Shown here: piece by piece, positions 2,309 through 20,955 of the stretch
How the letters are laid out: the number at the start of each line of letters is the position of its first letter
How positions within the stretch are numbered: position 1 is the first letter of the stretch
Assembly (NCBI GenBank): GCA_045121005.1
Contig: JBGVFJ010000065.1
Location: 29,776-93,775, forward strand
DNA length: 64,000 nt
DNA from: Acutalibacteraceae bacterium
GTDB taxonomy: Bacteria; Bacillota; Clostridia; Oscillospirales; Acutalibacteraceae
Reading direction: 5' to 3'
Notes under the pieces: generated by a model
Seen by the model: only the letters and a program-made list of their open reading frames with translations
What the model was told of the DNA's origin: nothing
Databases searched by the model: none
Position numbers and translations under genes: made by a program

Positions 2309-2328
2309 TATTGGAAGGAGAAAAGGAT

Positions 2329-2535: not shown

Positions 2536-2600
2536 TGCGTTGTTCTGATATATGTGACAAAAAAGGACAAAAGGAAAAAACAACGGAAGGAGGTGTAAGT

Positions 2601-2945: not shown

Positions 2946-3179
2946 TGCAGATACCTTCGGGAGCTATTCCCTTTAAAACTTATGCGAATTTTTGCACACG
3001 ACCCCTGGGCCGTTGCCCGGAGTTATAGTCGTAGAGATTTAGCCCCCCTGGGGGGTATCGAAATCCCCACAGCTTTTTACTTATGCAACGGGCGTGGGGC
3101 GTCACGTAAAAAATCGCAAAATCAAACGGGGTATTAACCCCAACATCAACTAATCAAAAATAATGGAGGAATTAACCAT

Positions 3180-4196: not shown

Positions 4197-4264
4197 GGTT
4201 GTGTGGGAGGGCGGCTTTCGGGTCGCTCTCCCTTACTCTTGTAGTCATAGGAAGGAGATATGCC

Positions 4265-4639: not shown

Positions 4640-4802
4640 ATACGCAGCCGAAAATATAATGCTGTACCGAACCTCCCTGGCTCTGCTCAAAAGCCTTGCG
4701 GAAGACGGCACATTTACCGAAAAAGAGTATTGTAAGATATCGACAATGCTGTCCCGTAAATACGGTTTATCTTCGGGTAGTATATTTGCGGAATCTGCTT
4801 GA
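4575..4802 (+). CDS. Hypothetical small protein upstream of the recombinases (start uncertain: 4566 TTG, 4575 ATG or 4659 ATG)
   Basis: ORF-track entry 4566-4802. GGAAAGGAG lies 10 nt upstream of the ATG at 4575. It overlaps the end of the preceding gene in another frame. Confidence 0.35.
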   Translation: MATKTENTAAVPATLRQDKQDKYAAENIMLYRTSLALLKSLAEDGTFTEKEYCKISTMLSRKYGLSSGSIFAESA

Positions 4803-4863
4803 TATATCCGCCAGTTAGAGCGAATATGTAGTGACCTTAATTGATACAAAGGAGGTAAATGTA

Positions 4864-6144: not shown

Positions 6145-7720
6145 AAATGTAACCGTAATACCCGCCACACGAAACTTGCACACGGGTATCCCCACCACCT
6201 CAAAGGCAAAACGCAAGGTCGCAGGTTACGCCCGTGTATCCACCGACAGCGATGAACAGTTCACAAGCTATGAGGCGCAGGTGGATTATTACACCAATTA
6301 CATCAAAAGCCGTCCCGAGTGGGAGTTTGTTGAAGTCTATACCGATGAAGGCATCTCCGCACTCAACACCAAAAAGCGTGATGGCTTTAACCGAATGATA
6401 GCAGACGCCCTTGGTGGCAAAATTGACCTCATCGTAACCAAAAGTGTAAGTCGCTTTGCCCGTAACACTGTGGACAGCCTCACCACCGTCCGCAAGCTGA
6501 AGGACAAGGGTGTTGAGGTGTATTTTGAAAAGGAAAATATATGGACGATGGACTCCAAGGGCGAGTTGCTTATCACGATCATGTCATCCCTTGCCCAGGA
6601 GGAGAGCCGTTCCATTTCCGAGAACGTAACCTGGGGGCAACGCAAACGATTTGCTGACGGCAAGGTCAATATGCCGTACAAACAGTTTCTCGGATACAGA
6701 AAAGGCGCAGACGGTCTGCCCGAGATCGTTCCCGAAGAAGCAGAAATCGTCCGCACCATTTACCGAATGTTTGTGGAAGGTATGTCCGCAGGCTCTATCG
6801 CAAAACACTTGACCGAAAACGGTGTTCCTACGCCATCCGGGAAAGCGGTATGGCAAAGACATACGATCGAGAGCATCCTTCAAAACGAGAAATACAAAGG
6901 CTCGGCACTTTTGCAGAAGAAATACACCGTGGATTTTCTGCAGAAAAAGATGAAGGTCAACGAGGGTGAAGTTCCGCAGTATTATGTGGAACACAGCCAT
7001 CCCGCCATCATCGCACCGGAAGAATGGGAACGGGTTCAGTTGGAACTGAAACGCAGAAAGGACAGCGGCAGACGCACCTTTTCCACCAGTCCCTTTGCCG
7101 GGAAACTCATCTGCGGAGATTGCGGTGAGATCTTCGGCTCAAAGGTATGGCACTCAAACAGCAAATACCGCCGAACCATATGGCAATGTAATGCAAAATT
7201 CAAGGGTGACACCATATGCACCACACCGCATTTATATGAGGATGACATCAAGGAGCTGTTCGTAGTAGCGCTAAGCAAGTTGCTTGCGGATCGTGAGGCG
7301 CTTCTTGAGGACGGCAGGCTCATCCGTCATGAGCTGTTGGATACCGCTGCGATCGATACAGAATGCGAGGAACTCCTCCAAGAGATGGATGTGGTCGCAG
7401 GCCTTATCCAAAAGTGCATCAACGAAAATGCCGTAAAAGCTATCGACCAAGATGAATATATCAGCCGATATAACTCCTTGGTGGAACGCCACGAAAAGGC
7501 TCAAAACCGCTATGACACTTTGCAGAAAAAGCGTGAACGCAGGCTCATCCAGGCGGATGTTATGAGCGGATTCCTTTTCGCCATCACCGAACTTGACAAC
7601 CTCCAACTTCAATTCAACCCGCCCCTCTGGCATACCACCGTCGACCACGTAACCGTGTACGCAGATGAGCGTTTGGTGTTTCATTTCAAAAATGGCAGCG
7701 AGGTTGAGGTTCAAATCTGA
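6131..7720 (+). CDS. Large serine recombinase (second copy, longer C-terminal coiled-coil/DUF4368-like tail)
   Basis: 529 aa. KVAGYARVSTDSDEQ catalytic motif, SRFARNT, Cys cluster CGDCGEIFG...CNAKF...C. Its start overlaps the stop of the upstream recombinase by 14 nt. Confidence 0.9.
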   Translation: MATAKNVTVIPATRNLHTGIPTTSKAKRKVAGYARVSTDSDEQFTSYEAQVDYYTNYIKSRPEWEFVEVYTDEGISALNTKKRDGFNRMIADALGGKIDLIVTKSVSRFARNTVDSLTTVRKLKDKGVEVYFEKENIWTMDSKGELLITIMSSLAQEESRSISENVTWGQRKRFADGKVNMPYKQFLGYRKGADGLPEIVPEEAEIVRTIYRMFVEGMSAGSIAKHLTENGVPTPSGKAVWQRHTIESILQNEKYKGSALLQKKYTVDFLQKKMKVNEGEVPQYYVEHSHPAIIAPEEWERVQLELKRRKDSGRRTFSTSPFAGKLICGDCGEIFGSKVWHSNSKYRRTIWQCNAKFKGDTICTTPHLYEDDIKELFVVALSKLLADREALLEDGRLIRHELLDTAAIDTECEELLQEMDVVAGLIQKCINENAVKAIDQDEYISRYNSLVERHEKAQNRYDTLQKKRERRLIQADVMSGFLFAITELDNLQLQFNPPLWHTTVDHVTVYADERLVFHFKNGSEVEVQI

Positions 7721-7765
7721 CTTGAGTATGTTATAATTTCATAACTATCACTTAGGAGGATGAAT

Positions 7766-7960
7766 ATGAAGAAAAACAAGGATATTTATATGGAACCGGA
7801 AGTGTATCGGCACAACAACTGCATCGTTAAGGTATACCGCCCGATTCTAACCGAAGAAGAACGTGCAAGACGGATGGAGGAAATCAAAAAAGCTGCGGTT
7901 GCCCTTATTATAGCGACAGAAAAAGCAAAGCAAAATAAGAATCGGTTGTTTAACGAATAG
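7766..7960 (+). CDS. Hypothetical small protein (last ORF of the element)
   Basis: ATG at 7766 lies 6 nt after AGGAGG. The product is a 64-aa basic/acidic helical-looking peptide. Confidence 0.45.
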   Translation: MKKNKDIYMEPEVYRHNNCIVKVYRPILTEEERARRMEEIKKAAVALIIATEKAKQNKNRLFNE

Positions 7961-8032
7961 CGGTAGTTTAACGATAGGTCGGTATGAATATTGGGTTGAG
8001 TCCCGGGGTGGGACTATAAAAACAATCAAAAA

Positions 8033-8082
8033 AGCGTTGCAGGATGGGTGGAATACTCCCAAAATGCAACGCTTGTTTTTAT
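8033..8082 (+). terminator. Rho-independent terminator after the element's last ORF
   Basis: Stem AGCGTTGCA (8033-8041) / TGCAACGCT (8065-8073), followed by TGTTTTTAT. Confidence 0.6.
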
Positions 8083-8121
8083 AAGTGCTTATTCTGCCTA
8101 TGTTTTTTGCGGTAAAATAAC

Positions 8122-8159
8122 GATACCGCTGTCGACACGATTGTATCAACAGCGGTATC
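8122..8159. terminator. Bidirectional hairpin terminator abutting the 3' end of tRNA-fMet
   Basis: 11-bp stem GATACCGCTGT / ACAGCGGTATC. A U-run follows on both strands (TGTTTTGG on +, GTTATTTTACC on -). Confidence 0.6.
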
Positions 8160-8164
8160 TGTTT

Positions 8165-8241
8165 TGGTTGCGGAGGTAGGATTTGAACCTACGGCCTCCG
8201 GGTTATGAGCCCGACGAGCTACCAAGCTGCTCTACTCCGCG
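8165..8241 (-). tRNA. Initiator tRNA-fMet (anticodon CAT), CCA encoded
   Basis: Reverse complement reads CGCGGAGTAGAGCAGCTTGGTAGCTCGTCGGGCTCATAACCCGGAGGCCGTAGGTTCAAATCCTACCTCCGCAACCA (77 nt). It shows a C1:A72 mismatch and GGG/CCC closing the anticodon stem, both typical of bacterial initiator tRNA. Confidence 0.9.
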
Positions 8242-8272
8242 ATATTCAGTTGCGCTCACAAGGAACTTTTAT

Positions 8273-8301
8273 ATTATACACATTAAGTATATGTTTGTCA
8301 A
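8273..8301 (-). promoter_or_regulatory. Consensus sigma-A promoter for tRNA-fMet
   Basis: On the minus strand: TTGACA (8296-8301), a 17-nt spacer, then TATAAT (8273-8278), about 30 nt upstream of the mature 5' end. Confidence 0.7.
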
Positions 8302-8487
8302 CACTTTTTTATACTTTTTTTAATTTTATTTTTATTTTGCATAAATCGGAAGCTGTTTTTTCGTCATAAAACACAAAGTTCTGAAAAAAATTTAAAAATT
8401 AAAAATGAGCTTTGTATATGAAAAAACGAGAAAAACGGAGAAAAATCGAGCATTGAAATTGTAAATTAAAATTTCAGAAAAAAGTTG

Positions 8488-8516
8488 TTGACATTGTCCC
8501 CTGCTTGTGGTAGTAT
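8488..8516 (+). promoter_or_regulatory. Sigma-A promoter of rplM-rpsI
   Basis: TTGACA (8488-8493), a 17-nt spacer, then TAGTAT (8511-8516) with TG two nt upstream. An AT-rich UP-like tract lies upstream. Confidence 0.65.
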
Positions 8517-8552
8517 ATTCGGGCAGTTAAAAATTATACGGAGGTTTGATTT

Positions 8553-8981
8553 ATGTCAACTTACATGCCTAAAGCTGGCGAGATTGCTCGCAAATGGTAT
8601 GTGCTCGACGCAGCAGGCAAGCCCATGGGCCGTGTTGCTGCTCAGGCCGCAGTTCTTCTCCGCGGTAAGCACAAGCCTACATTCGCTCCTCATGTTGATT
8701 GCGGTGATCACGTTATCATCATCAACGCTGAGAAAGCAGTTCTCACAGGTAACAAACTCAACCAGAAAATGTATTATCATCACACCGGCTACATCGGCAA
8801 CATGAAAGAGGTTAAGTACAGCACTCTTATGCGTACAAAGCCCGCATTTGCTATGCAGCTTGCTGTTAAGGGTATGATCCCCGACACAGTTATCGGTCGT
8901 GACGCTCTTTCAAGACTTCGCGTTTATGCAGGTGCTGACCACAAGCATGCTGCTCAGAAGCCCGAAGCTTGGGAATTATAA
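8553..8981 (+). CDS. rplM: 50S ribosomal protein L13
   Basis: 142 aa. KWYVLDAAGKPMGRVAAQAAVLLRGKHKPTFAPHVDCGDHVIIINAEK is typical L13. RBS GGAGG. Confidence 0.97.
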   Translation: MSTYMPKAGEIARKWYVLDAAGKPMGRVAAQAAVLLRGKHKPTFAPHVDCGDHVIIINAEKAVLTGNKLNQKMYYHHTGYIGNMKEVKYSTLMRTKPAFAMQLAVKGMIPDTVIGRDALSRLRVYAGADHKHAAQKPEAWEL

Positions 8982-9786: not shown

Positions 9787-9815
9787 TTGAAAATATATAA
9801 TGATTGTGCTATAAT
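9787..9815 (+). promoter_or_regulatory. Sigma-A promoter driving the cobalamin riboswitch
   Basis: TTGAAA (9787-9792), a 17-nt spacer, then TATAAT (9810-9815). Confidence 0.65.
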
Positions 9816-9840
9816 ATACAAAATTTAATACTGAAATAAA

Positions 9841-10013
9841 GAGATACGGTTTTGAAAAGTTGTAAGCTGAGTAGATTTAATAGGGAAATCAGGTTCGAAT
9901 CCTGAACAACCGCCATTACTGTGTAGGAATTGAAAATCAGATTAATGTCTGCATTTCTGCGGTTATAATCTGCTTTGATATCTGTTCCTTAAGTCAGAAC
10001 ACCTGCCGTGTCT
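9841..10013 (+). promoter_or_regulatory. Cobalamin (B12) riboswitch aptamer
   Basis: AATAGGGAAATCAGGTTCGAATCCTGAACAACCGCCATTACTGT core plus the B12-box-like AAGTCAGAACACCTGCC (9990-10006). Candidate P1 is 9842-9849 with 10005-10012. Recognised by eye and not scored with a covariance model. Confidence 0.8.
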
Positions 10014-10040
10014 TTTTAGGTTCAACACAACTTTGGTGAG

Positions 10041-10098
10041 AAGAGTGCAACCGATTTATCGTAGTATGGTAGATTTTGGATTGCGTTCTTTTTTATTT
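10041..10098 (+). terminator. Riboswitch expression-platform terminator; a second U-tract hairpin lies at 10141-10190
   Basis: Stem GAGTGCAACC / GGATTGCGTTC, followed by TTTTTTATTTT. A second 13-bp stem TACTCTTTTGACC / GGTTGAAAGGGTA is followed by TTTTTTATTTT. Confidence 0.5.
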
Positions 10099-10202
10099 TG
10101 TGCAGTCCGAAGTTATTGTTGTCGTACCGCGTTAATCTGTTGTACTCTTTTGACCTTTTTGGTTGAAAGGGTATTTTTTATTTTGTAAAGGAGGTTTGAC
10201 AA

Positions 10203-10502
10203 GTGACATCAGAAGAGAAAAAGTGCTGGGCGGCAGAACTTTTGAAAAGGAAAGCTGAGGAACTCGGAAGATTGCCCAAAAAGGATGATTTTGATGAACC
10301 CACACGGTCACGAATCAAAGCCTACCTCGGACCGTGGCCAAGGGCATTGGAAGCTGCCGGATTAAAAGAAGCAAAACCTGTTTCCCAAAAATCCAAAAAG
10401 AGAAAAAGGGCAACTATCAGGTCTAAAAACCAAACTGTTTCTGCAAGACAAAAGTTGGAGAAACACAGAGCCGAACCGAAAGAACAGGATACTTTCGGTT
10501 AA
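10203..10502 (+). CDS. Small cytoplasmic protein with one homing-endonuclease-associated (HNH-repeat-like) motif and a Lys/Arg-rich tail
   Basis: GTG start 8 nt after AAGGAGG. AEELGRLPKKDDFDEPTRSRIKAYLGPWPRALEAAGL resembles the HNH-associated repeat. The tail is KSKKRKRATIRSKN. No signal peptide. Confidence 0.55.
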   Translation: MTSEEKKCWAAELLKRKAEELGRLPKKDDFDEPTRSRIKAYLGPWPRALEAAGLKEAKPVSQKSKKRKRATIRSKNQTVSARQKLEKHRAEPKEQDTFG

Positions 10503-10534
10503 AACAAAATGAAAAATATCAAAAAGGAGAATCA

Positions 10535-13318
10535 ATGATGAAAAAAAGAATTTTAAGCGTTATTCTTTCCATCGCAATGCTGCTAACAGCAACACCCCTT
10601 ATGTCTGTTGCGTCAGAAAGCGAATATGTTTATATGTCTGTAAGCTATGATGACAAATATACCGATGACAAAAACGGCAATCCCATAGCTTATATTCCCG
10701 TATCCCTCGAAACACTTCAATCTGTTGATTTGAACGAATACAATCTTTCTGAATATCTTTATGACGAAGACGGTGACGGCAATTATGACATTACAGCATT
10801 ACAGCTTATCATCTATGCTCACGAAGAGCTTTATGGCGGTGATTGGAGCGAGGTAACTTTCACAGGTAGTCCCGGAAGTTCATATTTCGCAGGAGGTCTT
10901 TTCGGCAGAGATGAAAACCTCAACTATTATCTGAACGGTCAGTATCCTCTTGCAAGCGGAGGATGGGGTGCAACCTCTGACCAGATTGTTCTTGAAGCAG
11001 GCGACTTTATTGACCTTGCAGGCTTTACAAGCTGGGATTTCTATCAGGACTCGGCTTACGGTTTTCATTATTTTGCTGATGCAAACGGTGATGTAACACA
11101 TTCTTACACCACAGAAACAGCCAAAGCTTGCGACATCAAGCTTATTAAAGGCACAAAGGATTATGAATACAATTCCGTTTTCTTTGAAATACCTGATTAT
11201 GAAGTACATTACGGTAAAGCACTCTATAATGAAACAGGAAGTGTAACAACAGATGACAGCGGATGTGCATCTATCACTTTCCCATCTGCAGGAAAATGGT
11301 ATCTTTGGGTTGACGGAGGTTATGGTAACGAATATCCCGATTCTATAGTTTCTGCTCCCGGCTATGCAGAGGTAACAGTTACATCGGCGGATGCTCCCCG
11401 TGAGCCTCAGGATGTAAGCGCTGTGCTTAATGCTACAATGGCACAGCTTGCTGATACAGTACAAGAACCTGCTTTCGGTACAAACGCAGGTGAATGGACA
11501 GTGTTGAGTCTGGCACGCGGTGAATATTTTGAAAAGAACAGCACTTATTTTAATGATTACTACAACCGTATTGTTTCAACAGTAAATGAAACAGCTTCAT
11601 CGGTTAATATGAACGGTGCACTCCACAAAAACAAATCAACTGAAAATTCCCGTCTGATTGTTGCTCTTTCATCTATCGGTAAGGATGCAACTGCTGTTGG
11701 TGATTGGAATCTTGTTGAAGCATACAGCCTGAACGGTTTTGATTGGGTTAAAAAGCAGGGTCTTAACGGTACGATATGGGCACTTATCGCGTTGGATTCG
11801 GGCAACTATGAAACAAGCGATGAAACCATCCGTCAGCAGTGTATTGATTCCATCCTCTCACTTCAGCATGATGATGGCGGTTGGGCATTACAGGCAAACA
11901 AGACTTACGCATCTGACCCTGATGTTACGGGTATGGCGCTTCAGGCTTTGTATCCCTATCGCAATCAGACAGCTGTAGCTGAAGCTTGTGAAAAAGCATT
12001 TGATTGTCTTTCTGAAATCCAGCACGAAAACGGCACATTTGCATCAGGCGGAAGTGAATGCTCTGAAAGCTGTGCATGGGTAATCGTTGCCTGCACAACA
12101 TGGGGCATCAATCCTGATACCGACAGCCGTTTTGTAAAGAACGAAAAATCTGTTGTTGACGGACTTCTTCTCCATTATCTTGAAGATAAGGCGCAGTTTG
12201 AACATATTGCAGACGCAGGTGCAAACGGTATGGCTACTGACCAATCCTGCTACGCTCTTGTTGCCTACAAGCGTTTTATAAATAACAAAACAAATCTTTT
12301 TGATATGTCTGATGTTGCATTTGATGAAAATGTTGAAATCGTTCCCGGTAAGATGACAGCAACTCTCGGTCTTCCTGCTGAAATATCCGATGAGGTCGGC
12401 AAAACTTTCAACGCAACAATCAGCATCGACCAGTGGGATAACAACGCAGGCTACAAGCTTATTGATTTTATTATGAATGTTCCCGAAGGTCTTACAGTTA
12501 CGGCAGTTACAGCCGAAAGCCGTCTTTCGGGCGGAACGGTAAATTACAACGTTGAAGAAAGCACAGGCAAACTCCGTGCAGTTTACTTTGACGCTAACAA
12601 CCATAGCGATATCACAGTAAGCGGAACCACCTTCCCGGCACTTCTTTTCACAATTACTTTCCGTGTCGATTCCGTAACTGCAGGCAACAAGCTTGGCTTT
12701 AACATCAGCGGAATGTCCGTTAAACTCAATTCAGATTCTGCGGATGAAAACTCTATGATTATTGTTGACATTACGGATGCAAGCGGTACGGTAAATGTTG
12801 TAACAGGTGTTTCTTATAGCGCAATGTGTCTCTATGTTGGTGATAATGTTGACCTTATCCCCTCGGAGAAAATGGCCGTTGCAGTAGCAGTTGTCGGTGC
12901 AAAGGCAGGAGCAAAGCTCAGCTACAACGACGGCATCAACGGTTATGAATTCAAGTACAGCACAGAAATTTCTGATAAAACAGGTATTTCAACTTACGTT
13001 GCACTTGTTGATTCTTCAATTGATATGGCGAATTTTGTTGATAAGCAGAATTTTGTTCTCTCTGATGACAACGCTGATGAAATCACATTCGGTGATGCAA
13101 ACGGCGACGGAGTAATCAATGCACAGGATGCACTCGGTGCAGTTGATTCCTGGCTTCGTAAAACAGATGCACCGTCAGATGACAAGATTCTCGCCCTCAA
13201 TGTGAACAGTGACAGCAGAATCAATACATTTGATGCTCTCGGCATCGTTGAAGCGTTTGTAGACGGCAGTGAATACATTGTTGTTACAAAGGCAGCAACT
13301 ATTACAGCTAATAACTAA
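10535..13318 (+). CDS. Secreted multidomain protein: DUF4430-like N-domain, alpha/alpha-toroid (prenyltransferase/transcobalamin alpha-domain-like), cohesin-like module, C-terminal dockerin
   Basis: 927 aa. Signal peptide MMKKRILSVILSIAMLLTATPLMSVASE. NYYLNGQYP...DQIVLEAGDFIDL is DUF4430-like. The toroid repeats show LQHDDGGWALQ and IQHENGTFASGG. See the cohesin and dockerin sub-features. Confidence 0.75.
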   Translation: MMKKRILSVILSIAMLLTATPLMSVASESEYVYMSVSYDDKYTDDKNGNPIAYIPVSLETLQSVDLNEYNLSEYLYDEDGDGNYDITALQLIIYAHEELYGGDWSEVTFTGSPGSSYFAGGLFGRDENLNYYLNGQYPLASGGWGATSDQIVLEAGDFIDLAGFTSWDFYQDSAYGFHYFADANGDVTHSYTTETAKACDIKLIKGTKDYEYNSVFFEIPDYEVHYGKALYNETGSVTTDDSGCASITFPSAGKWYLWVDGGYGNEYPDSIVSAPGYAEVTVTSADAPREPQDVSAVLNATMAQLADTVQEPAFGTNAGEWTVLSLARGEYFEKNSTYFNDYYNRIVSTVNETASSVNMNGALHKNKSTENSRLIVALSSIGKDATAVGDWNLVEAYSLNGFDWVKKQGLNGTIWALIALDSGNYETSDETIRQQCIDSILSLQHDDGGWALQANKTYASDPDVTGMALQALYPYRNQTAVAEACEKAFDCLSEIQHENGTFASGGSECSESCAWVIVACTTWGINPDTDSRFVKNEKSVVDGLLLHYLEDKAQFEHIADAGANGMATDQSCYALVAYKRFINNKTNLFDMSDVAFDENVEIVPGKMTATLGLPAEISDEVGKTFNATISIDQWDNNAGYKLIDFIMNVPEGLTVTAVTAESRLSGGTVNYNVEESTGKLRAVYFDANNHSDITVSGTTFPALLFTITFRVDSVTAGNKLGFNISGMSVKLNSDSADENSMIIVDITDASGTVNVVTGVSYSAMCLYVGDNVDLIPSEKMAVAVAVVGAKAGAKLSYNDGINGYEFKYSTEISDKTGISTYVALVDSSIDMANFVDKQNFVLSDDNADEITFGDANGDGVINAQDALGAVDSWLRKTDAPSDDKILALNVNSDSRINTFDALGIVEAFVDGSEYIVVTKAATITANN
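12350..12805 (+). other. Cohesin-like module inside the 927-aa protein
   Basis: KMTATLGLPAEISDEVGKTFNATISIDQ...GYKLIDFIMNVPEGLTVTAVTA...GKLRAVYFDANN...ALLFTITFRVDSVTAGNKLGFNISGMSV has the alternating beta-strand pattern of type-I-like cohesins. Judged by eye. Confidence 0.55.
13082..13267 (+). other. Dockerin module (two calcium-binding F-hand loops)
   Basis: ITFGDANGDGVINAQDALGAVDSWL...LALNVNSDSRINTFDALGIVEAFVDG contains two DxNxDxxIxxxD-type loops about 34 aa apart. Confidence 0.8.
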
Positions 13319-13364
13319 CTGATTATTAAGGGGTGGGACTGACACTCCCACCCCTCTTGGGAGA

Positions 13365-13997
13365 ATGAATATGAGCAAAAGTAAATTGGAACCGAAAACA
13401 AAAAAGAGAATAAAAATTGGTATCTCAATCGGCGTTTTACTGCTTTTGTTGATACTGATTCTCCTTTTTTCATTCTGCGGTGAAAACCCGTTCGGCAAAC
13501 CTACACTTACAATAGAAACTCCGCAGAAAATCAGCCTTTCCGAAACAGATGAAATCACCCTCGATGTGACAATATCATCATTCGGTGAAGCTAAATATCC
13601 GGCTGCAAGTATGAGCATTGTATTTGACCCGTCAAAGCTTGAGTTTATAGGTATAGAAGAAGGTAACGTTTTTATCCGTAATGACGGCGAAGAGATTGAA
13701 CAAAGACTGCCGGACTGGAGCTGTAACCCGACACAATGCAACAAAACGGGTAAAATCAACATTATGTACCTTGACACAACAGGCGGAAAGAATGCGTTTG
13801 ACAAAGACTTGCTTGCAAAGGACGACAATGTTGTGCTTCGCCTGAAATTCCGTCTCAGAGGAAGTCTTCGCAAAGGCGATGTATGTGACCTTGTTTTCGA
13901 AGATGCTGTTTTTGCGGCATCAGACGAAACACAAAGTCTGGCAATGACAACCGGTACACTTAATGTCAGAAACGGTAAAATTGTTATAGGAGATTAA
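13365..13997 (+). CDS. N-terminally membrane-anchored cohesin-like protein
   Basis: 210 aa. Basic N-terminus plus TM segment IGISIGVLLLLLILILLFSF. Cohesin-like body: AASMSIVFDPSKLEFIGIEEGNVF...GKINIMYLDTTGG...VVLRLKFRLRGSLRKGDVCDLVFEDAVFA. Confidence 0.6.
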   Translation: MNMSKSKLEPKTKKRIKIGISIGVLLLLLILILLFSFCGENPFGKPTLTIETPQKISLSETDEITLDVTISSFGEAKYPAASMSIVFDPSKLEFIGIEEGNVFIRNDGEEIEQRLPDWSCNPTQCNKTGKINIMYLDTTGGKNAFDKDLLAKDDNVVLRLKFRLRGSLRKGDVCDLVFEDAVFAASDETQSLAMTTGTLNVRNGKIVIGD

Positions 13998-13998
13998 A

Positions 13999-15117
13999 AT
14001 GAAAAGAATAATATGTTTAATATTAGCCTTCGTGCTTCTTATGACAACTACAGCCTGCAGTGGTAATTTCACACAGGTTAACCTTAATGAACCCATAGCT
14101 ATTCCGGAAAACGGGATTGTTGAGAAAAGTGTTTTAGATAAAATCAGAAACGAGAACGCTATCGCCACATTCACAGGTTCATCAAATGATATTAAATACG
14201 AATGGACAGTTTTCGGCAGTGATATCAATGAGACAAAGGATGTAAATTTATCCGTTGTCCTGAACAAATCAGATAAGGGCATAAAGGTCAATTTTACCGA
14301 AACGAAGGATTTGGGCTTTCCTGCCCTGCTTTCTATTCATATCAACGAAAAATGGTCAGCAGACAGTGCAACTGCTTTTAACGGTGGCAAGGGTGTTTAT
14401 TCTGTTTCTGTAACAGGCAGTAAAACAAGTATTCTGAATATATCTGTAAACAAGATTGTTCCTGAAATTGAAATTCTGCCTGATAAAACAAATTATACAG
14501 AAGACACTACTGCAGAAAATACAAATCCGACAGAAAATAATTCTGTTTCAGGCGGAAAAGACAATTATCTTTCAGGTGTGCAGAGCTCTGGTGACAGAGT
14601 TTATTCTGACGGTACAGCAACAGAAAAAGATAAATATGAAACAGACCCCGTACCCGAAGGAAAACCTATGCCCGTTGAGCCTGAAAATCAGGAAATCAAC
14701 AACAAAAAGAAATACACCTGCACCTTTTCCATTGAATGCTCAACAATCCTGAATAACCTTTCTGACCTTGACCCTGATAAACGTCATCTGGTACCTTCAG
14801 ACGGTGTTATTTTACCGCCTACAAAGGTGACATTCTATGAAGGTGAATCAGTCTATGATGTGCTTCAGCGTGTTTGTAAGGAAAACAACATACATATGGA
14901 ATCCTCATGGACTCCTGTTTATAACAGTGCCTATATTGAAGGCATAAACAATCTTTATGAATTTGACTGCGGTGAGCTTTCAGGCTGGATGTACCGCGTT
15001 AACGGATGGTATCCAAATTACGGTTGCTCCCGTTATCAGCTTGCAGACGGCGAGGTTGTAGAATGGCGTTATACATGCGACCTCGGTAACGATGTCGGTC
15101 GTGAAGGAACTTGGTAA
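13999..15117 (+). CDS. Lipoprotein with C-terminal DUF4430 (transcobalamin beta-domain-like) domain
   Basis: Lipobox-like LLMTTTAC. Low-complexity linker. C-terminal CTFSIECSTILNN...VTFYEGESVYDVLQRVCKENNI...GWMYRVNGWYPNYGCSRYQLADGEVVEWRYTCDLG. Confidence 0.7.
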   Translation: MKRIICLILAFVLLMTTTACSGNFTQVNLNEPIAIPENGIVEKSVLDKIRNENAIATFTGSSNDIKYEWTVFGSDINETKDVNLSVVLNKSDKGIKVNFTETKDLGFPALLSIHINEKWSADSATAFNGGKGVYSVSVTGSKTSILNISVNKIVPEIEILPDKTNYTEDTTAENTNPTENNSVSGGKDNYLSGVQSSGDRVYSDGTATEKDKYETDPVPEGKPMPVEPENQEINNKKKYTCTFSIECSTILNNLSDLDPDKRHLVPSDGVILPPTKVTFYEGESVYDVLQRVCKENNIHMESSWTPVYNSAYIEGINNLYEFDCGELSGWMYRVNGWYPNYGCSRYQLADGEVVEWRYTCDLGNDVGREGTW

Positions 15118-15122
15118 AATTT

Positions 15123-16013
15123 ATGAGAGATTCATTTTCAGAATATCATCCCTTTATAAACCTAATATATTTTGCATTTACGATAAGCTTTTCTCTTGTG
15201 CTGACGCACCCATTGGCACAGGGGATTTCTCTCGTGTGTGCAATTATTTATGCAGTAAGTATAAACGGGAGGAAAAGCGTGATATTTCTCTTGAAATACT
15301 GTCTGCCGATGGTGCTTCTGACTGCATTTATCAACCCTGCGTTCAATCACGAGGGCTCAACAACTCTGCTGTATTTCCCGAATGGCAATCCTCTTACGCT
15401 TGAAAGTATTTTATACGGATTTTCTGCAGGTGTGATGATAATTACAACGCTGATGTGGTTTTCGTCGTTCAACTCAGTGATGACAACGGACAAGTTTATC
15501 TATCTTTTCGGCAAGGTTATTCCCGCTTTGTCACTTGTGCTGAGTATGTCTTTAAGATTTGTTCCTAAATTCAAATCGCAGATGCAGACGGTCACCGAAG
15601 CACAAAGAAGCATCGGCAGAGATGTGTCGAACGGAAGTCTGTTACAGAGAACAAAGACGGCAATTCACATCTTTTCAATTATGATAACCTGGTCACTCGA
15701 AAATGCCATTGAAACAGCTGACAGTATGAAAAGCCGCGGATACGGATTAAAAGGCAGAACTGCATTTTCAATTTATCGCTTTGATGAAAGAGATAAATAT
15801 ACACTTGCATGGCTTTCTTTCTGTGGATTGTTTCTTGTTGCAGGAACTATACTTAATGCTTTCGGGTTCAGATATTTCCCGGATATTCGTTATGCTGCAT
15901 TTGATATGACAACAATACCTTTCTACTGTGCGTACTCTGCACTTTGCATTACACCCGTGATATTAAACTTAAAGGAGGAGAGAAAATGGAAAACTTCAGT
16001 TTCAGGAATGTAA
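15123..16013 (+). CDS. ECF transporter transmembrane (T) component, EcfT/CbiQ family
   Basis: ORF-track entry 15111-16013; an ATG lies at 15123. Polytopic membrane protein with a conserved-looking ...AQRSIGRD... / ...SMKSRGY... region. The RBS is weak, so the start is uncertain. Confidence 0.75.
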   Translation: MRDSFSEYHPFINLIYFAFTISFSLVLTHPLAQGISLVCAIIYAVSINGRKSVIFLLKYCLPMVLLTAFINPAFNHEGSTTLLYFPNGNPLTLESILYGFSAGVMIITTLMWFSSFNSVMTTDKFIYLFGKVIPALSLVLSMSLRFVPKFKSQMQTVTEAQRSIGRDVSNGSLLQRTKTAIHIFSIMITWSLENAIETADSMKSRGYGLKGRTAFSIYRFDERDKYTLAWLSFCGLFLVAGTILNAFGFRYFPDIRYAAFDMTTIPFYCAYSALCITPVILNLKEERKWKTSVSGM

Positions 16014-18634
16014 GCTTCGCATATCCCGAGCAGGAAAACAAAGCTCTCCGTAATATCTCCTTTGAGGTAAATCAGGGTGAATTTCTGATTCTTTGCGGTC
16101 CGTCAGGCTGCGGCAAATCAACACTTCTGCGTCACCTCAAAACCTGCCTTACACCTCACGGTGTAGTTAACGGTGAAATTCTGTTTAACGGCAAACCGCT
16201 TAATGAGGTTAACGAAAGAACACAGGCACAGGAAATCGGCTTTGTGCTTCAGTCTCCCGAAAATCAGGTGGTAACCGATAAGGTATGGCACGAGCTTGCT
16301 TTCGGACTTGAAAGCCTTGGGCTTGATACGCCAACTATCCGCCGCCGTGTGGCAGAGGTTGCAGCATTCTTCGGTATTGAAAATTGGTTCTATAAGAATG
16401 TAACCGAGCTTTCAGGCGGTCAGAAACAGCTTCTCAGCCTTGCTTCGGTTATGTGTATGAATCCGAAAATACTTGTTCTCGATGAACCTACGGCACAGCT
16501 TGACCCTATTGCCGCTTCTGATTTCCTTGCTCTTCTCGGGAAAATCAACCGTGAGCTCGGTATAACGGTTATTCTTACCGAGCACAGACTTGAAGAAGCT
16601 TTTCCCTTTGCAACAAGAGTTATTGTTATGGAGAAAGGTGAAATTATCTGTGATGATTCTCCCGAAAAAGTTGGACTTCATCTTCGTCAAAAGGATAACG
16701 GAATGTTCCTTGCTATGCCTACAGCAATGAGAGTGTGGGCAGGTGTTGAAACGAAGCTTGACTGTCCGATTACCGTACGTGACGGTAGTGAGTTCCTGAC
16801 TGAAAGAAGCAAAGAAAAAGCACTTCTTCCCCTTGAAAGGGAAAAAGTGCATACATATACTGATGAAATAACTCTTGAGTGTAATGAAATATGGTTCAGA
16901 TACGAAAAAGACCTGCCTGATGTTATAAAAGGCTTTTCTCTCACTCTGCACAAGGGTGAATTTTATGCAATTCTCGGCGGTAACGGTGCAGGTAAAACAA
17001 CAACGTTGAAAGTAATTTCGGGACTTCGCAAGGCTTACCGAGGTAATGTAAAAGCGAACGGTAAGGTTGGAATGTTACCACAGAATCCGCAAGCGCTTTT
17101 TGTAAAAAGAACAGTGCGTGAGGATTTATATGAGGCTCTCAGTAATGTAAAAATCTCAAAGAAAGAAAAGGATGAGCAGGTTTCCCGTGTAGTTGGTCTT
17201 TGCTCGCTGACCGATTTTCTTGACCGACATCCATATGATATTTCAGGCGGTGAACAGCAAAGAACCGCACTTGCAAAGGTTCTTCTTACCGCACCCGATA
17301 TACTTCTTCTCGATGAGCCGACAAAAGGCTTTGATGCAGAATTCAAGGTAGTATTTGCGGATATTATCGGTAAACTAACAAATCAGGGCGTAACCGTGCT
17401 TATGGTCAGCCATGATGTGACCTTCTGTGCAGAGTATGCACACAGATGCGGTATGTTTTTTGACGGTAATATTGTTGCAGAGGGCACTCCCCGTGAGTTT
17501 TTCTCAGGCAATAGCTTCTACACAACATCTGCAAACCGTATGGTAAGGCACCTCATTCCCGATGCGGTAACGGTTGATGAAATCATTGCTTGCTGTGGCG
17601 GAGAAATCAAGAAAAAAGAAAGTACGGATGAAATAACACCTTTGCCTGAGCCTGCCCCGAGAAGTGTAAATTTCAAGCCTGAACCACTTAAACTATGGCG
17701 TAAAATTCTTGCTGCAGCATCAGGGCTTGTTTCATTGGCTGTATTTTTCTATGCAACGGGAATTACCGATTTATCAGCACTTATAAATTCTTCGGGAATA
17801 AGTGAAGCGGGTAAAAATCAATTATGGCTTTACGGGATTTTGTTTGTTGCTCTTACCGTGTTTATGATTGCAATCGGAAGACGGAGCGAACCACCGCTTA
17901 TAGTGCAGACGCCGAAAGAAAAACGGAATTTAAGCAAGCGGACAATTGTGGCATCTGTTGCTATATTGCTCTTTATTCCTCTGACCATATTTGCAGGAAT
18001 TTTCTATCTCGACAACCGACAGTATAACATTGTCGCACTGCTTGTGCTTTTAGAGTGTATGTTGCCGTTTATTCTCGTATTTGAGGGCAGAAAGCCTAAG
18101 GCAAGAGAGCTTGTGACAATTGCCGTGCTTTGTGCAATCGGAATAGCAGGCAGAAGTCTCTTTTTTATGCTACCTCAGTTCAAGCCTGTTCTTGCACTCA
18201 CAATAATCGCAGGTGTGGCTTTCGGCGGAGAAGCAGGATTCCTTGTAGGCGCCGTTACAATGCTTCTTTCAAATATGCTGTTCTCTCAAGGACCGTGGAC
18301 ACCGTGGCAGATGTTTGCAATGGGTATTATAGGTTTTCTTGCGGGTGTTCTTTTCAAAAAAGGATTGCTTCGCAGAACACGGGCATCACTTGCCGTTTTC
18401 GGTGCGTTTGCCGCTGTTGTTATTTACGGCGGAATAATGAACCCTGCATCAATGCTTATGTATTCGTCACAGACAATAACAGTTAAAGCCTTGATGGCAT
18501 ATTATATTTCAGGTCTTCCCATGGACTTGGTACACGGCTTCGGAACAGTTATATTCATTATGCTCGCTGCCGAACCAATGCTTGAAAAAATGGACCGTAT
18601 CAAGGTAAAATATGGGTTTTTAACTGATTGTTAA
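15986..18634 (+). CDS. Fusion protein: two ABC ATPase domains (EcfA-EcfA type) plus a C-terminal ECF S-component-like membrane domain
   Basis: ATG at 15986 after AAAGGAGGAGAGAAA. Walker A GPSGCGKST and GGNGAGKTT, signatures LSGGQKQ and ISGGEQQ. The C-terminal ~300 aa has about 6-7 hydrophobic helices. It overlaps the T-component gene by 28 nt. Confidence 0.8.
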   Translation: MENFSFRNVSFAYPEQENKALRNISFEVNQGEFLILCGPSGCGKSTLLRHLKTCLTPHGVVNGEILFNGKPLNEVNERTQAQEIGFVLQSPENQVVTDKVWHELAFGLESLGLDTPTIRRRVAEVAAFFGIENWFYKNVTELSGGQKQLLSLASVMCMNPKILVLDEPTAQLDPIAASDFLALLGKINRELGITVILTEHRLEEAFPFATRVIVMEKGEIICDDSPEKVGLHLRQKDNGMFLAMPTAMRVWAGVETKLDCPITVRDGSEFLTERSKEKALLPLEREKVHTYTDEITLECNEIWFRYEKDLPDVIKGFSLTLHKGEFYAILGGNGAGKTTTLKVISGLRKAYRGNVKANGKVGMLPQNPQALFVKRTVREDLYEALSNVKISKKEKDEQVSRVVGLCSLTDFLDRHPYDISGGEQQRTALAKVLLTAPDILLLDEPTKGFDAEFKVVFADIIGKLTNQGVTVLMVSHDVTFCAEYAHRCGMFFDGNIVAEGTPREFFSGNSFYTTSANRMVRHLIPDAVTVDEIIACCGGEIKKKESTDEITPLPEPAPRSVNFKPEPLKLWRKILAAASGLVSLAVFFYATGITDLSALINSSGISEAGKNQLWLYGILFVALTVFMIAIGRRSEPPLIVQTPKEKRNLSKRTIVASVAILLFIPLTIFAGIFYLDNRQYNIVALLVLLECMLPFILVFEGRKPKARELVTIAVLCAIGIAGRSLFFMLPQFKPVLALTIIAGVAFGGEAGFLVGAVTMLLSNMLFSQGPWTPWQMFAMGIIGFLAGVLFKKGLLRRTRASLAVFGAFAAVVIYGGIMNPASMLMYSSQTITVKALMAYYISGLPMDLVHGFGTVIFIMLAAEPMLEKMDRIKVKYGFLTDC

Positions 18635-18688
18635 ATCCTTTGGTTTGAAAAGCCATTTTTCGTATCAGACACAAGCACCCTTTCTTTT

Positions 18689-18706
18689 GTATTCACATAC
18701 TTTCAC
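18689..18706 (-). repeat. Third, inverted copy of the GTGAAAG-N4-TGAAWAC motif
   Basis: The reverse complement of 18689-18706 reads GTGAAAGTATGTGAATAC. Confidence 0.6.
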
Positions 18707-18890
18707 TTGAATAATTACTATCGCGCAGTGATTGATGAGACGGTAAAAAATCTAATAACTTTTGTGATTTTAGAGCTTAAAATTGCGTTAATCGGTACAA
18801 ATTAGACCACAAGTGGACCAAGGAAGCCTTGAAAGCCTTATATATAAACGAACCGCACTTTTCAAAGAGATATTTATTTCTTACAATTCA

Positions 18891-18920
18891 CAGCACTCAC
18901 TTCGGTGGGTGCTGTTTTTC
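18891..18920 (+). terminator. Rho-independent terminator about 260 nt after the ECF fusion gene
   Basis: Stem CAGCACTCAC / GTGGGTGCTG (one G-U pair), loop TTCG, then TTTTT. Confidence 0.7.
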
Positions 18921-18946: not shown

Positions 18947-18975
18947 TTGACTTGCTGGGGTTTTGGATTTATAAT
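18947..18975 (+). promoter_or_regulatory. Sigma-A promoter of the 19004 ORF
   Basis: TTGACT (18947-18952), a 17-nt spacer, then TATAAT (18970-18975). Confidence 0.6.
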
Positions 18976-19003: not shown

Positions 19004-19852
19004 TTGGCTACCTTCGGCACAATTTATGTTATTTTTAAAAAAGTGATTTCTTTAATTTCGGCAATCGTTCTTATGGTGGTTGCGGCTGACGAAAAGAATT
19101 TGCCCTCCCCTGACGCTGAAATTGTTGACAAATATCAATATGTTCTTCTGGACTATCAGATGAGCTCACAGGGTGTTACAAATGACGGTGAATATTTTTA
19201 TTTCAGCGGCAATAAAAACCTCAGCAAGGCAAGCATGGAAACAGGAGAAATCTGCCGTGTTACTTCAAATGCCATTCCCAAAGAGCTTCAGGACAAGGGC
19301 TGCAACCACATCGGAGGATTAAGCTATTATAACGGCAAGATTTATGCCGCTGTTGAAGACGGACCTGAATATCTTAATTCATTTATCGTTTTGTATGATG
19401 CCGAAACATTGGAATACACCGGCACTTATTACGAACTCCCTCACGAGCTTCACATTGAAGGCGTGCCGTGGTGCGCAGTTGACGTTGAACGAAATTATCT
19501 TTACACCGCTGAATGGAGCAACGCTACTGTTCTGAATGTGTTTGACCTTGATACTCTTGAGCTTGTTAAAACCGTTCCCCTTTCTGAGCCCATTGACAGA
19601 ATTCAGGGCGCTGAAATGTTTGGCGGAAAGTTATATATGTCCTGCGATGAATTGAATGATATGAAGAGAATTTTTTCTCTTGACGTTGAAACAGGCAAGG
19701 TTGAAGTTGTTTTTGCCAGAAACATCGGTGAAGGCTTCGAGGCCGAGGGTATGACTGTTTATGCCGATGACGACGGTAAGCCCGTTTTCTGTGTACTTGA
19801 CAGAGGAGAAAGAAGAATCAGCACAAGCCTGACATTATACAAGCTTAAATAA
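19004..19852 (+). CDS. Hypothetical membrane-anchored/secreted protein, possibly beta-propeller-like
   Basis: 282 aa. TTG start 9 nt after AGGAG. N-terminal hydrophobic segment ISLISAIVLMVVAA. Repeated Y/F-rich strand pattern. No confident family assignment. Confidence 0.5.
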   Translation: MATFGTIYVIFKKVISLISAIVLMVVAADEKNLPSPDAEIVDKYQYVLLDYQMSSQGVTNDGEYFYFSGNKNLSKASMETGEICRVTSNAIPKELQDKGCNHIGGLSYYNGKIYAAVEDGPEYLNSFIVLYDAETLEYTGTYYELPHELHIEGVPWCAVDVERNYLYTAEWSNATVLNVFDLDTLELVKTVPLSEPIDRIQGAEMFGGKLYMSCDELNDMKRIFSLDVETGKVEVVFARNIGEGFEAEGMTVYADDDGKPVFCVLDRGERRISTSLTLYKLK

Positions 19853-19861: not shown

Positions 19862-19897
19862 AGACGGTTGAGTTAATCAACCGTCTGTTCTTTTTTT
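19862..19897. terminator. Bidirectional terminator between convergent genes
   Basis: Stem AGACGGTTGA / TCAACCGTCT, followed by GTTCTTTTTTT. It overlaps the stop of the eutH-like gene. Confidence 0.7.
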
Positions 19898-20955
19898 ATT
19901 AACTTTTTACTCATTGGGATTGCAACAAAAATTGCGCAAACCGCTGAAATGAGCTTACCTATGGTTACACTGAGAATATAATCGTCATTAAACGCCATTG
20001 TGAATGCGATATGGTCGGTGAAAGCAAAGGCGGCGGAAACCGCAAATGCAGAGTTGATTACAACTCCCCTTCTGTCCATATCCTTCATATCTTCAAAGGT
20101 TGTGGCGCTTGTGGCAAGGGTGGAAACGAGACCCTTGACCGAAGCGTCGTTGATGCCAAGCCTCTGACCCGCTTTGTTGAGGGGCTTGTTGAAAAGTTTT
20201 GCAAGAATATAAAGCAAAGGCAATGCACCCGTCATTACACAAGCGGCATTAAGCACAAGGCTCATAGCGTTTTCGATGGAATCAACATAAGGAAGGGGTT
20301 TGTATCCCGTGAGGAAAGTAAGAATCCCAACCACGAGACCCACGGTGATAATTGCTTTCATTATGTAGCCGAGGACACTGAAAATCCTGACACATACATT
20401 GGGAATGAGAAGCAAGCCCACTGCAATAATTGCCGAAAAAATAACCAACGGAATCATATTGATAATCAGCGTTTTAAAGGGAAGTTTGAGAATCAAGCCC
20501 GATACAATGCAACCAACGGGGATTGTTACAATTCCGCAGAGAAGACCCAGCAACGTATCGTGATGCTGTTCTTTTTTAACAACGCTCATTGCAAAGGGAA
20601 TTGTAAATGAAATTGTGCAACCCATCATAGAAGCCACCACAAGGCCGTTGAAATAACCCAGAGCTTCGTTGTTGGTCAGCTGAGCCGAAAGAGATGCACC
20701 GCCCTGGTCGTTGGCAAAAATTGAGCCTGTGATGATTGAGGGGTCAATGAAATCGGGAAGAATAGCTATCACCGGCTCAAGGTAGTGAGCTATCAGGGGT
20801 GACATAATTATCATACCCACCATTGAAATTGCCAAGGGCCCCAGCATATATATTCCCTTTTCAAATTCCTTGCCCAGACCCAGCTTGCTGCCGAAAATCC
20901 TGTCCAGCGCGGCAACAATGGCAAAGGCAACCATTACGTAAGAAAGTACATTCAT
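19873..20955 (-). CDS. eutH: EutH-family permease (ethanolamine-utilisation protein EutH-like)
   Basis: 360 aa polytopic protein. AALDRIFGSKLG..., FANDQGGASLS, GIVTIPVGCIVSGL and VINSAFAVSAAFAFTDHIAF closely resemble E. coli EutH as I recall it. Confidence 0.8.
   Translation of the reverse strand: MNVLSYVMVAFAIVAALDRIFGSKLGLGKEFEKGIYMLGPLAISMVGMIIMSPLIAHYLEPVIAILPDFIDPSIITGSIFANDQGGASLSAQLTNNEALGYFNGLVVASMMGCTISFTIPFAMSVVKKEQHHDTLLGLLCGIVTIPVGCIVSGLILKLPFKTLIINMIPLVIFSAIIAVGLLLIPNVCVRIFSVLGYIMKAIITVGLVVGILTFLTGYKPLPYVDSIENAMSLVLNAACVMTGALPLLYILAKLFNKPLNKAGQRLGINDASVKGLVSTLATSATTFEDMKDMDRRGVVINSAFAVSAAFAFTDHIAFTMAFNDDYILSVTIGKLISAVCAIFVAIPMSKKLIKKEQTVD

Follow-up and report, generated by a model that had tools for sequence, protein, structure and literature searches.

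A cobalamin riboswitch-preceded operon joining cohesin and dockerin modules to a predicted corrinoid importer in an uncultured Oscillospirales bacterium

The stretch of DNA analysed here, referred to as the window, comprises 64,000 nucleotides (nt) of contig JBGVFJ010000065.1 and comes from an uncultured Oscillospirales bacterium of the family Acutalibacteraceae. Between positions 9787 and 18920 of the window, to whose numbering all coordinates refer unless another locus is named, lie a cobalamin riboswitch and six genes, called g1 to g6 in their order along the operon. These encode a small basic protein, a secreted multidomain protein ending in a dockerin, a membrane-anchored cohesin, a lipoprotein ending in a DUF4430 domain, and the two polypeptides of a predicted energy-coupling factor (ECF) importer. 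An earlier note, made from the sequence without database searches, had interpreted the locus as a cell-surface corrinoid-capture complex, assembled through cohesin-dockerin contacts over a dedicated importer and switched on when intracellular B12 is low. All the sequence features that it named were recovered at the positions it gave, and the analysis described below supports this interpretation in parts and in its context.

The operon, its leader and the importer genes

The promoter is the best site of the scanned region (Table 1), and it feeds a leader that matches the Rfam Cobalamin covariance model (RF00174) over its entire length, from model position 1 to 189, with a score of 50.8 bits relative to a gathering score of 31.5 (E = 1e-9). 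Hence the proposals of the earlier note that a good promoter precedes the operon, and that its leader is a cobalamin riboswitch, both stand; the motif strings on which the latter was based, AGGGAAATCAGGTTCGAATCC...GCCATTACTGT and AAGTCAGAACACCTGCC, all occur in the leader, together with a U-tract hairpin. The riboswitch is situated between the promoter and g1, with the terminator hairpin and U-tract downstream of it, and the same layout is found at orthologous loci. A scan for terminators identified the terminator-like stem and the T-tract that follows it, whilst folding of the RNA from 10020 to 10205 returned a single long hairpin of -58.4 kcal/mol (z = -5.7 relative to shuffled sequences). 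Switching is predicted to proceed through this terminator-type expression platform.

The six open reading frames (ORFs) that follow are all on the forward strand and are separated by intergenic gaps of between -7 and 46 nt, as expected of the tightly packed, co-directional set that had been described, and an intrinsic terminator lies beyond the last of them. The next gene downstream, g7 (19004-19852), encodes a membrane-anchored protein of 282 aa that weakly matches the beta-propeller-like family DUF6923, and has a promoter-like site of its own at 18947-18975. As a tblastn search of 80 related loci found g7 at none of them, it is considered to lie outside the operon.

An indication of what the operon transports comes from its last two genes. 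The product of g5 matches Pfam CbiQ/EcfT at 31.7 bits (cutoff 25) and has several transmembrane segments; that of g6 contains two ABC_tran domains according to Pfam and matches the NCBIfam model TIGR04520 at 348 bits (cutoff 315). The C-terminal part of g6 is an S-component, with scores above the cutoff for both ECF-ribofla_trS (PF07155, 42.8 bits) and ECF_trnsprt (PF12822, 40.9 bits). When this domain was compared with the sequences in the PDB, the sole significant match was chain A of 6FNP (E = 6e-8), extending from residue 10 to 178 of 182. The vitamin B12 transporter solved by crystallography in this entry is ECF-CbrT from Lactobacillus delbrueckii (PMC5997447), in which chain A would, to judge from its length of 182 aa, be the S-component CbrT itself. 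ECF-CbrT carries both cobalamin and cobinamide, and hemin is not a competitor (PMC5997447). The identification of g5 as EcfT and of g6 as an EcfA-EcfA-S fusion therefore agrees with that of the earlier note, and the two proteins are predicted to form a group-I ECF importer, that is, one with a dedicated module, of the CbrT type and with corrinoids as its likely substrates. It is because the homology to CbrT coincides with the riboswitch that a corrinoid is favoured as the substrate, and the two together constitute the strongest argument for it. No CbiM or CbiN cobalt component was found in the list of ORFs or by the Pfam scan.

The combination of EcfA, EcfA' and S in one chain is an unusual fusion. 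Approximately four additional hydrophobic segments lie between the second ATPase and the S-domain, at about 17700-18100 (aa ~587-716 in the numbering of an 896-aa product); an even number of such helices would leave the topology consistent. Translation of g6 probably begins at the ATG at 15986, which is found behind AAAGGAGG, rather than at the TTG at 15944.

At the other end of the operon, g1 is the first gene after the riboswitch. Its product lacks a signal peptide and matches Pfam HNH_repeat at 49.4 bits (cutoff 26), a family (PF18780) described as 'homing endonuclease associated repeat'; it could be a regulator. The gene was found by tblastn just upstream of the g2 orthologue in around 60 of the 80 related loci.

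Table 1. Features of the operon, in window coordinates; residue ranges (aa) refer to the encoded protein
Feature	Position	Strand	Description or basis
Sigma-70-type promoter	9787..9815	+	TTGAAA-17-TATAAT, extended TG; 11/12 consensus positions
Cobalamin riboswitch aptamer (RF00174)	9830..10024	+	Rfam covariance model; B12 box AAGTCAGAACACCTGCC inside
Expression platform	10021..10185	+	Long stable hairpin with terminator stem 10142-10174 at its end, then U-tract
g1	10203..10502	+	99 aa; small, basic, cytoplasmic; HNH_repeat (PF18780)
g2	10535..13318	+	927 aa; secreted, multidomain; Sec signal peptide aa 1-27
g2 beta-grasp (SLBB/DUF4430-like) domain	aa 30-165; 10622..11029	+	AlphaFold2 model; Pfam in orthologues
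g2 beta-sandwich 1	aa 175-285	+	AlphaFold2 model
g2 alpha/alpha toroid	aa 295-595; 11417..12319	+	All-helical in model, pLDDT >90
g2 internal cohesin-like beta-sandwich	aa 606-757; 12350..12805	+	Model, Foldseek, hhalign
g2 further beta-sandwich	aa 760-846	+	AlphaFold2 model
g2 type-I-like dockerin	aa 850-912 (helical to aa 920 in model); 13082..13270	+	Pfam near cutoff; two Ca-binding loops; conserved tail after
g3	13365..13997	+	210 aa; Lys-rich cytoplasmic tail, one transmembrane helix, ~8-aa linker, cohesin
g3 cohesin	aa 46-210; 13500-13994	+	Pfam Cohesin (PF00963)
g4 lipoprotein	13999..15117	+	372 aa; lipoprotein-type N-terminus
g4 N-domain, beta-sandwich	aa 30-163	+	AlphaFold2 model; low-complexity linker follows
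g4 C-terminal DUF4430/SLBB domain	aa 282-359; 14842-15075	+	Pfam
g5, EcfT (CbiQ family) transmembrane coupling subunit	15111..16013	+	Pfam, hydropathy
g6, EcfA-EcfA' tandem ATPase fused to CbrT-like S-component	15986..18634	+	Pfam, NCBIfam
g6 S-component, CbrT-like	~18104-18619	+	Match to 6FNP chain A
Intrinsic terminator, end of operon	18890..18915	+	11-bp stem with 6 GC pairs, then T-tract

Modules of the extracytoplasmic proteins

Both g2 and g3 are annotated by NCBI as 'hypothetical protein'. An AlphaFold2 model of the g2 product, from which the domain boundaries in Table 1 were taken, was built on an alignment of 54 homologues and has a mean predicted local distance difference test score (pLDDT) of 87.5; the predicted template modelling score of 0.46 is that expected of domains arranged as beads on a string. 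The protein itself has neither a transmembrane anchor, nor an SLH domain, nor a sortase motif.

What it does have, at its C terminal end, is a dockerin. The two calcium-binding loops, GDANGDGVINAQDAL and NVNSDSRINTFDAL, are canonical and non-symmetrical (DxNxDGxIxxxD and NxNxDxxIxxxD, respectively), and the alignment of orthologues reveals a conserved tail of around 15 aa. In five of the seven orthologues scanned, Pfam Dockerin_1 (PF00404) scores above threshold, at 25.6-33.2 bits, and dockerins were the sole matches, albeit weak ones (E between 0.07 and 0.6), of the g2 sequence to the PDB.

A cohesin is encoded by g3, the product of which matches Pfam Cohesin at 38.9 bits (cutoff 24.1) and has an N-terminal transmembrane segment on the basis of its hydropathy, as the description of a membrane-anchored cohesin had implied. 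An alignment of 31 orthologues contains 35 invariant columns, and only a very short linker joins the transmembrane helix to the cohesin, so the cohesin must sit at the membrane surface. At every related locus that reaches far enough, this gene is found directly 3' of the dockerin gene. The conserved adjacency of the two genes, along with the high conservation of the dockerin, suggests that the g2 dockerin binds the g3 cohesin.

A second cohesin-like module appears to lie within g2. Searching the PDB with the whole g2 model using Foldseek retrieved numerous solved cohesins (target-normalised TM-scores 0.6-0.75), amongst them 2vo8 (0.75), 2xdh (0.72), 1g1k (0.72) and 5nrk (0.71), as well as 3ul4; the output does not include query coordinates, and these matches most plausibly belong to aa 606-757. 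Cohesins from outside cellulosomes are included in this set, namely those of C. perfringens GH84C and GH33 and of A. fulgidus (2w1n, 2vo8 and 2xdh). A profile of aa 606-757 aligns with that of the g3 cohesin family over 122 columns (hhalign, E = 2.5e-4), and on this ground the module is judged to be real and predicted to be a divergent paralogue of g3. Pfam Cohesin did not score above threshold at this module in any protein scanned, one orthologue (L070) having a sub-threshold match of 17.9 bits there.

The N-terminal domain of g2 has a beta-grasp-type pattern of secondary structure in the model. The window protein has no Pfam match to DUF4430 here, whilst two Ruminococcus orthologues (L065 and L067) score 32.1 and 25.1 bits at the equivalent position (cutoff 23.8), followed by a Cadherin-like sandwich in each and with dockerins of 29-33 bits. 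Hence, of the four modules that the earlier note had assigned to g2, the toroid holds up on the evidence of profiles and the model, and the dockerin, DUF4430-like and cohesin-like modules do so in part through the orthologues, the DUF4430-like one having no Pfam match in the window protein. The arrangement varies in at least one homologue of 1347 aa (P0010), in which the unit of beta-grasp domain and sandwich is duplicated in tandem and an extra insert precedes the toroid.

The lipoprotein g4 matches Pfam DUF4430 at 65.1 bits (cutoff 23.8), in agreement with the earlier reading of its C-terminal domain. In transcobalamins, DUF4430 forms the C-terminal end (PMC4350170) and is the beta-domain that contacts B12 (PMC1796856); a search of the literature found no functional study of a bacterial DUF4430. 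The N-terminal domain of g4 is modelled with confidence by AlphaFold2, and Foldseek returned no structural neighbour of the g4 model at E <= 0.001.

Conservation of the operon and its surroundings

The operon is widespread. More than 2000 of 8000 candidates scored were homologues of g2 at E <= 1e-5, and the g2 family comprises 5487 clusters at 50% identity (E <= 1e-3). When one genome per GTDB species was scanned, at least 594 relatives were identified, of which the best 80 loci were studied. The closest, at 96-99% identity, are from Acutalibacteraceae, 'Candidatus Fimenecus' and metagenome-assembled genomes (MAGs) of Clostridia from the ruminant gut; more remote relatives are labelled Faecousia, Ruminococcus (including an R. 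flavefaciens MAG) and Oscillospiraceae. Down to approximately 50% identity, the order g1-g2-g3-g4-g5-g6 was recovered by tblastn in essentially every locus on a sufficiently long contig. The survey of the neighbourhood that the earlier note had called for thus finds the operon preserved as one unit in 80 species or more.

The riboswitch is retained along with the genes. Using standard Rfam settings it was detected upstream at 12 of 14 diverse loci, and with permissive filters it reached or exceeded the gathering score at 13; the fourteenth (L081) has a weak match of 20.6 bits at the expected place. One locus (L042) has two copies, scoring 32.4 and 30.0 bits. These riboswitch-like elements lie at 7350-7484 and 8515-8661 of that locus, one ahead of g1 and the other ahead of g2.

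The degree of conservation differs between modules, as judged by the mean identity to the window protein across 69 divergent loci, or 64 for the dockerin. Of all elements of the operon, the DUF4430 domain of g4 is conserved best (84%, with 50 invariant columns), followed by the S-component and the dockerin (both 79%), EcfA1 (78%), the toroid (69%), which is the best conserved of the large g2 domains, the g3 cohesin (68%), the internal cohesin-like module (57%) and the N-domain of g4 (54%). That the DUF4430 domain, the S-component and the dockerin head this list fits with ligand binding and with a fixed protein-protein contact. Relatives from outside the clade combine the toroid and DUF4430 in a single chain that ends in SLH domains and lacks a dockerin; as these are cell-surface anchors, the dockerin fills the anchor slot.

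The immediate surroundings of the operon are less constant. A permease of the EutH family flanks it both in the window (19873-20955) and in the closest MAG (7854-8942 of locus L001), on opposite sides and in opposite orientations, which indicates an inversion or a relocation of the segment with the operon among strains that are almost identical. What follows EutH in the window is a complete his operon, not eut genes. A link through EutH to ethanolamine utilisation, which is B12-dependent, was considered and dropped: the EutH gene stands alone, with the his operon adjoining and no eutBC.

Elsewhere in the window, an apparent integrated mobile element lies within 6-8241, adjoining a tRNA gene on the reverse strand (8168-8241) and encoding a primase/helicase-like protein with DUF3987 (6-2159) and a pair of large serine recombinases (4831-6144 and 6131-7720). 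The reverse strand also carries the RNA of a class A bacterial RNase P at 36439-36786 (259.6 bits) and, at 48114-58331, a giant ORF of 3405 codons in which Listeria-Bacteroides (Flg_new) repeats occur at least 12 times and FIVAR is weakly matched, the product of which is probably a cell-surface protein.

Proposed function, alternatives and known systems

Taken as a whole, it is rather probable that this is a dedicated operon for the uptake of corrinoids (vitamin B12 or cobinamide), in which g2 is tethered through its dockerin to the cohesin of g3. What the analysis shows is that a cobalamin riboswitch is present, what the domains are, that the S-component is a homologue of CbrT, and that operon and riboswitch are conserved. 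At high intracellular concentrations of adenosylcobalamin, the leader would favour the terminator, and at low concentrations the operon would be transcribed. The products of g5 and g6 would then make a dedicated importer of the ECF-CbrT type, whilst outside the membrane the secreted g2, through its beta-grasp/SLBB-like domain and toroid, and the lipoprotein g4, through its DUF4430/SLBB domain, would catch scarce corrinoid. Having no anchor of its own, g2 would be held by its dockerin on the membrane-rooted cohesin of g3, keeping the binder beside the transporter, and either g4 or the SLBB domain of g2 may pass the ligand to the S-component. The binding of corrinoids by g2 and g4, the contact between dockerin and g3 and the hand-over to the S-component are predictions of this scheme; for the contact, g3 is the obvious receptor, since the dockerin occupies the anchor slot and g3 is adjacent.

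A number of observations weigh against this reading, several of them in favour of particular alternatives. The dockerin of the window protein scores 22.5 bits, 0.4 under the Dockerin_1 cutoff of 22.9, such that the profile searches suggested for cohesin and dockerin return an above-threshold match for the former in the window and for the latter in the orthologues. The alignment of the N-domain of g2 with the DUF4430 domain of g4 is weak, though in register (hhalign, E = 0.067), and the DUF4430 part of the g4 model has a pLDDT of only 20-40, probably because the alignment is shallow, every row of it being at least 73% identical.

The choice of partner for the dockerin is made ambiguous by the cohesin-like module within g2 itself. 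It might be that the uptake system is as proposed, but that the dockerin binds either the internal module of another g2 molecule, head to tail, or the cohesins of a general scaffoldin, with g3 recruiting some other dockerin protein. The internal module does resemble solved cohesins in its fold and the g3 family in its profile; the ScaH dockerin of R. flavefaciens FD-1 recognises the cohesin of its own protein, and proteins with both a cohesin and a dockerin dock on ScaA and ScaB in that strain (PMC5301203). Orthologues of the operon are present in Ruminococcus, the R. flavefaciens MAG included, and in those Ruminococcus that have a cellulosome the dockerin could go to other scaffoldins. However, g3 adjoins the dockerin gene at all loci long enough to tell, it is better conserved than the internal module, it surpasses the Pfam threshold that the internal module nowhere reaches, and no second dockerin motif that it might recruit was found across the 64-kb window. 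We therefore regard this arrangement as unlikely, though as having a real chance of being correct. Covariation of rates was tried as a test of partnership, using partial Spearman correlations of per-domain identity with the divergence of the toroid controlled, and was dropped: the dockerin gave values of 0.60 with the g3 cohesin, 0.73 with the internal module, 0.62 with EcfT and 0.61 with the N-domain of g4, and such similar correlations reflect phylogeny, not the identity of the partner.

The possession by g2 of both a cohesin-type module and a dockerin, next to a membrane-rooted cohesin in g3, also makes it conceivable that g3-(g2)n chains assemble themselves head to tail across the thick Gram-positive wall, as a relay with multiple corrinoid sites leading to the ECF transporter. 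This is a speculative extension that we think doubtful; if true, it would represent a 'cellulosome' that does not act on glycans, and a clear instance of an ECF importer dependent on extracytoplasmic binding proteins.

A different possibility is that the proteins encoded by g2 to g4 do not catch corrinoids at all, and are envelope proteins (adhesins, or similar to thioester-domain proteins or terpenoid cyclases) or a corrinoid-remodelling enzyme that shares the transcript, in which the cohesin-like and dockerin-like modules are purely structural. Such a reading draws on the nearest folds to the whole g2 model in the PDB, which are the thioester-domain proteins C3, TEP1, CD109 and alpha-2-macroglobulin, all of which combine a toroid with beta-sandwiches, and on the sequence relatives of the toroid, the family profile of which matches squalene-hopene cyclase (5e-7) ahead of alpha-2-macroglobulin (0.09); the toroid of the window protein scores 21.5 bits for Pfam Prenyltrans, under the cutoff of 26.5. 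There was no transcobalamin in the top 50 Foldseek matches of the whole g2 model, which were taken up by multidomain thioester-domain proteins and by cohesins, nor did sequence and profile searches of the PDB with g2, g4, the toroid, the N-terminal domain or DUF4430 find transcobalamin, intrinsic factor or haptocorrin, and the N-domain of g4 has no informative structural neighbour. Consequently, of the suggestion in the earlier note that the two folds of transcobalamin are represented here, the presence of the toroid and DUF4430 classes stands; as these searches yielded no direct structural likeness of the g2 toroid to transcobalamin, the label 'transcobalamin-like' for g2 and g4 rests on the link between DUF4430 and SLBB and on the literature. 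Nevertheless, if these genes had no function in common with the ECF genes and the riboswitch, their strict linkage to them in at least 80 species would be hard to account for; the domain with which transcobalamins contact B12 is conserved better than anything else in the operon, and there are relatives that, like transcobalamin, place toroid and DUF4430 in one chain. Hence we consider it improbable that g2 to g4 serve another purpose.

Least probable is that the substrate is another tetrapyrrole, such as heme, or cobalt: a similar operon of L. sakei has been linked to heme uptake (bioRxiv 10.1101/864751), the Pfam name of the g5 family is 'cobalt transport protein' and several of the NCBIfam matches are cobalt ATPases, but the conserved upstream riboswitch is a cobalamin riboswitch, CbrT, to which the S-domain is related by homology, showed no competition of hemin with cobalamin, and CbiM and CbiN are not present.

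Vitamin B12 is scarce and contested in gut and rumen communities. To our knowledge, the capture of corrinoids by Gram-positive anaerobes is far less well understood than that by BtuG/BtuB in Bacteroides or BtuBFCD in E. coli. If the proposed uptake operon functions as described, it would provide a concrete mechanism by which Oscillospirales scavenge corrinoids with high affinity; it would also mean that ECF importers work with extracellular binders, contrary to the usual definition of this class, and would extend cohesin-dockerin assembly from the degradation of polysaccharides to the uptake of micronutrients. The system is widespread and unannotated and touches two fields, but its concept extends what was already proposed and is no surprise. 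The highly conserved pair of dockerin and cohesin could, in addition, act as an orthogonal module for surface display.

With respect to precedents, no link of cohesin-dockerin modules with B12, riboswitches or ECF transporters was found in the 7.7 million PMC papers and the bioRxiv preprints searched, nor did the literature search find a paper linking dockerins or cohesins with prenyltransferase or squalene, the co-mentions being coincidental. Surveys of the R. flavefaciens FD-1 cellulosome list divergent putative cohesins (ScaK, L, M, N and P) and proteins with both cohesin and dockerin (ScaM and ScaO); the putative cohesins might include genes of the g2 and g3 type, although a match by sequence could not be made.

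The closest functional precedent is the system predicted in 2007 by Burroughs, Balaji, Iyer and Aravind (PMC1796856). They described bacterial proteins that have signal peptides and surface anchors and join an SLBB domain of the transcobalamin clade to an alpha/alpha toroid; the genes often share an operon with CbiO, CbiQ and a second SLBB paralogue. Such operons occur in organisms that do not synthesise B12, and the proteins were predicted to be Gram-positive B12 scavengers, possibly forming surface complexes (PMC1796856). The present operon has the same ingredients, a secreted protein with a toroid and a probable SLBB (DUF4430-like) domain, an SLBB (DUF4430) protein beside it and genes for ECF-type ATPases and the T component. 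It differs in the means of attachment: in the earlier work the anchors were of the LPXTG type, with tethering proposed through Ig-like, FIVAR, fasciclin and beta-propeller domains, whereas here the binder carries a dockerin and a membrane-anchored cohesin has a gene of its own. The words cohesin, dockerin and riboswitch do not occur in that paper (PMC1796856).

With ECF-CbrT (6FNP, PMC5997447) the operon shares an importer of the ECF type, a homologous S-component and the expected substrates, cobalamin and cobinamide. However, CbrT works without an extracellular partner, as a solitary S-component served by an ECF module that is shared (PMC5997447), whereas the S-component of g6 is fused to EcfA-EcfA' via the extra transmembrane segments, and is accompanied by its own EcfT and three extracytoplasmic proteins. 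The ECF operon lsa1836-1840 of L. sakei, which has been assigned to heme uptake, encodes S, AA' and T components in one transcription unit with secreted proteins resembling the alpha- and beta-domains of a split transcobalamin, and has in common with the operon described here the idea that extracellular binders feed an ECF transporter (bioRxiv 10.1101/864751). In the available portion of that preprint neither a cohesin nor a dockerin is reported, and it is the cobalamin riboswitch and the CbrT-like S-domain that set the present operon apart.

The eukaryotic transcobalamin, intrinsic factor and haptocorrin are built from the same two classes of fold, an alpha/alpha toroid and a DUF4430/SLBB beta-domain; in g2 the toroid follows the DUF4430-like domain, the reverse of the order in transcobalamin, and beta-sandwich, cohesin-like and dockerin modules have been added. 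The assembly modules, for their part, are those of the cellulosome and amylosome, where, as in ScaE-type anchoring in R. flavefaciens (PMC5301203), a secreted protein bears a dockerin of approximately 60 aa with two loops and the cell bears a cohesin of approximately 150 aa. In contrast to those systems, the operon encodes no carbohydrate-active enzyme domain and no scaffoldin with multiple cohesins, g3 having a single cohesin and g2 a single cohesin-like module; the anchor is one transmembrane helix in place of a sortase motif or SLH domains, the protein carried would be a vitamin binder, and the setting is a transporter operon under the predicted control of a riboswitch. As regards the claim that such a scheme of vitamin scavenging is new, the scavenging of B12 by surface toroid/SLBB proteins with CbiO and CbiQ had already been predicted, and the cohesin-dockerin tether appears undescribed. 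Hence what appears to be new here is this tether, together with the AA'S fusion, on a predicted and never experimentally verified kind of B12-scavenging system.

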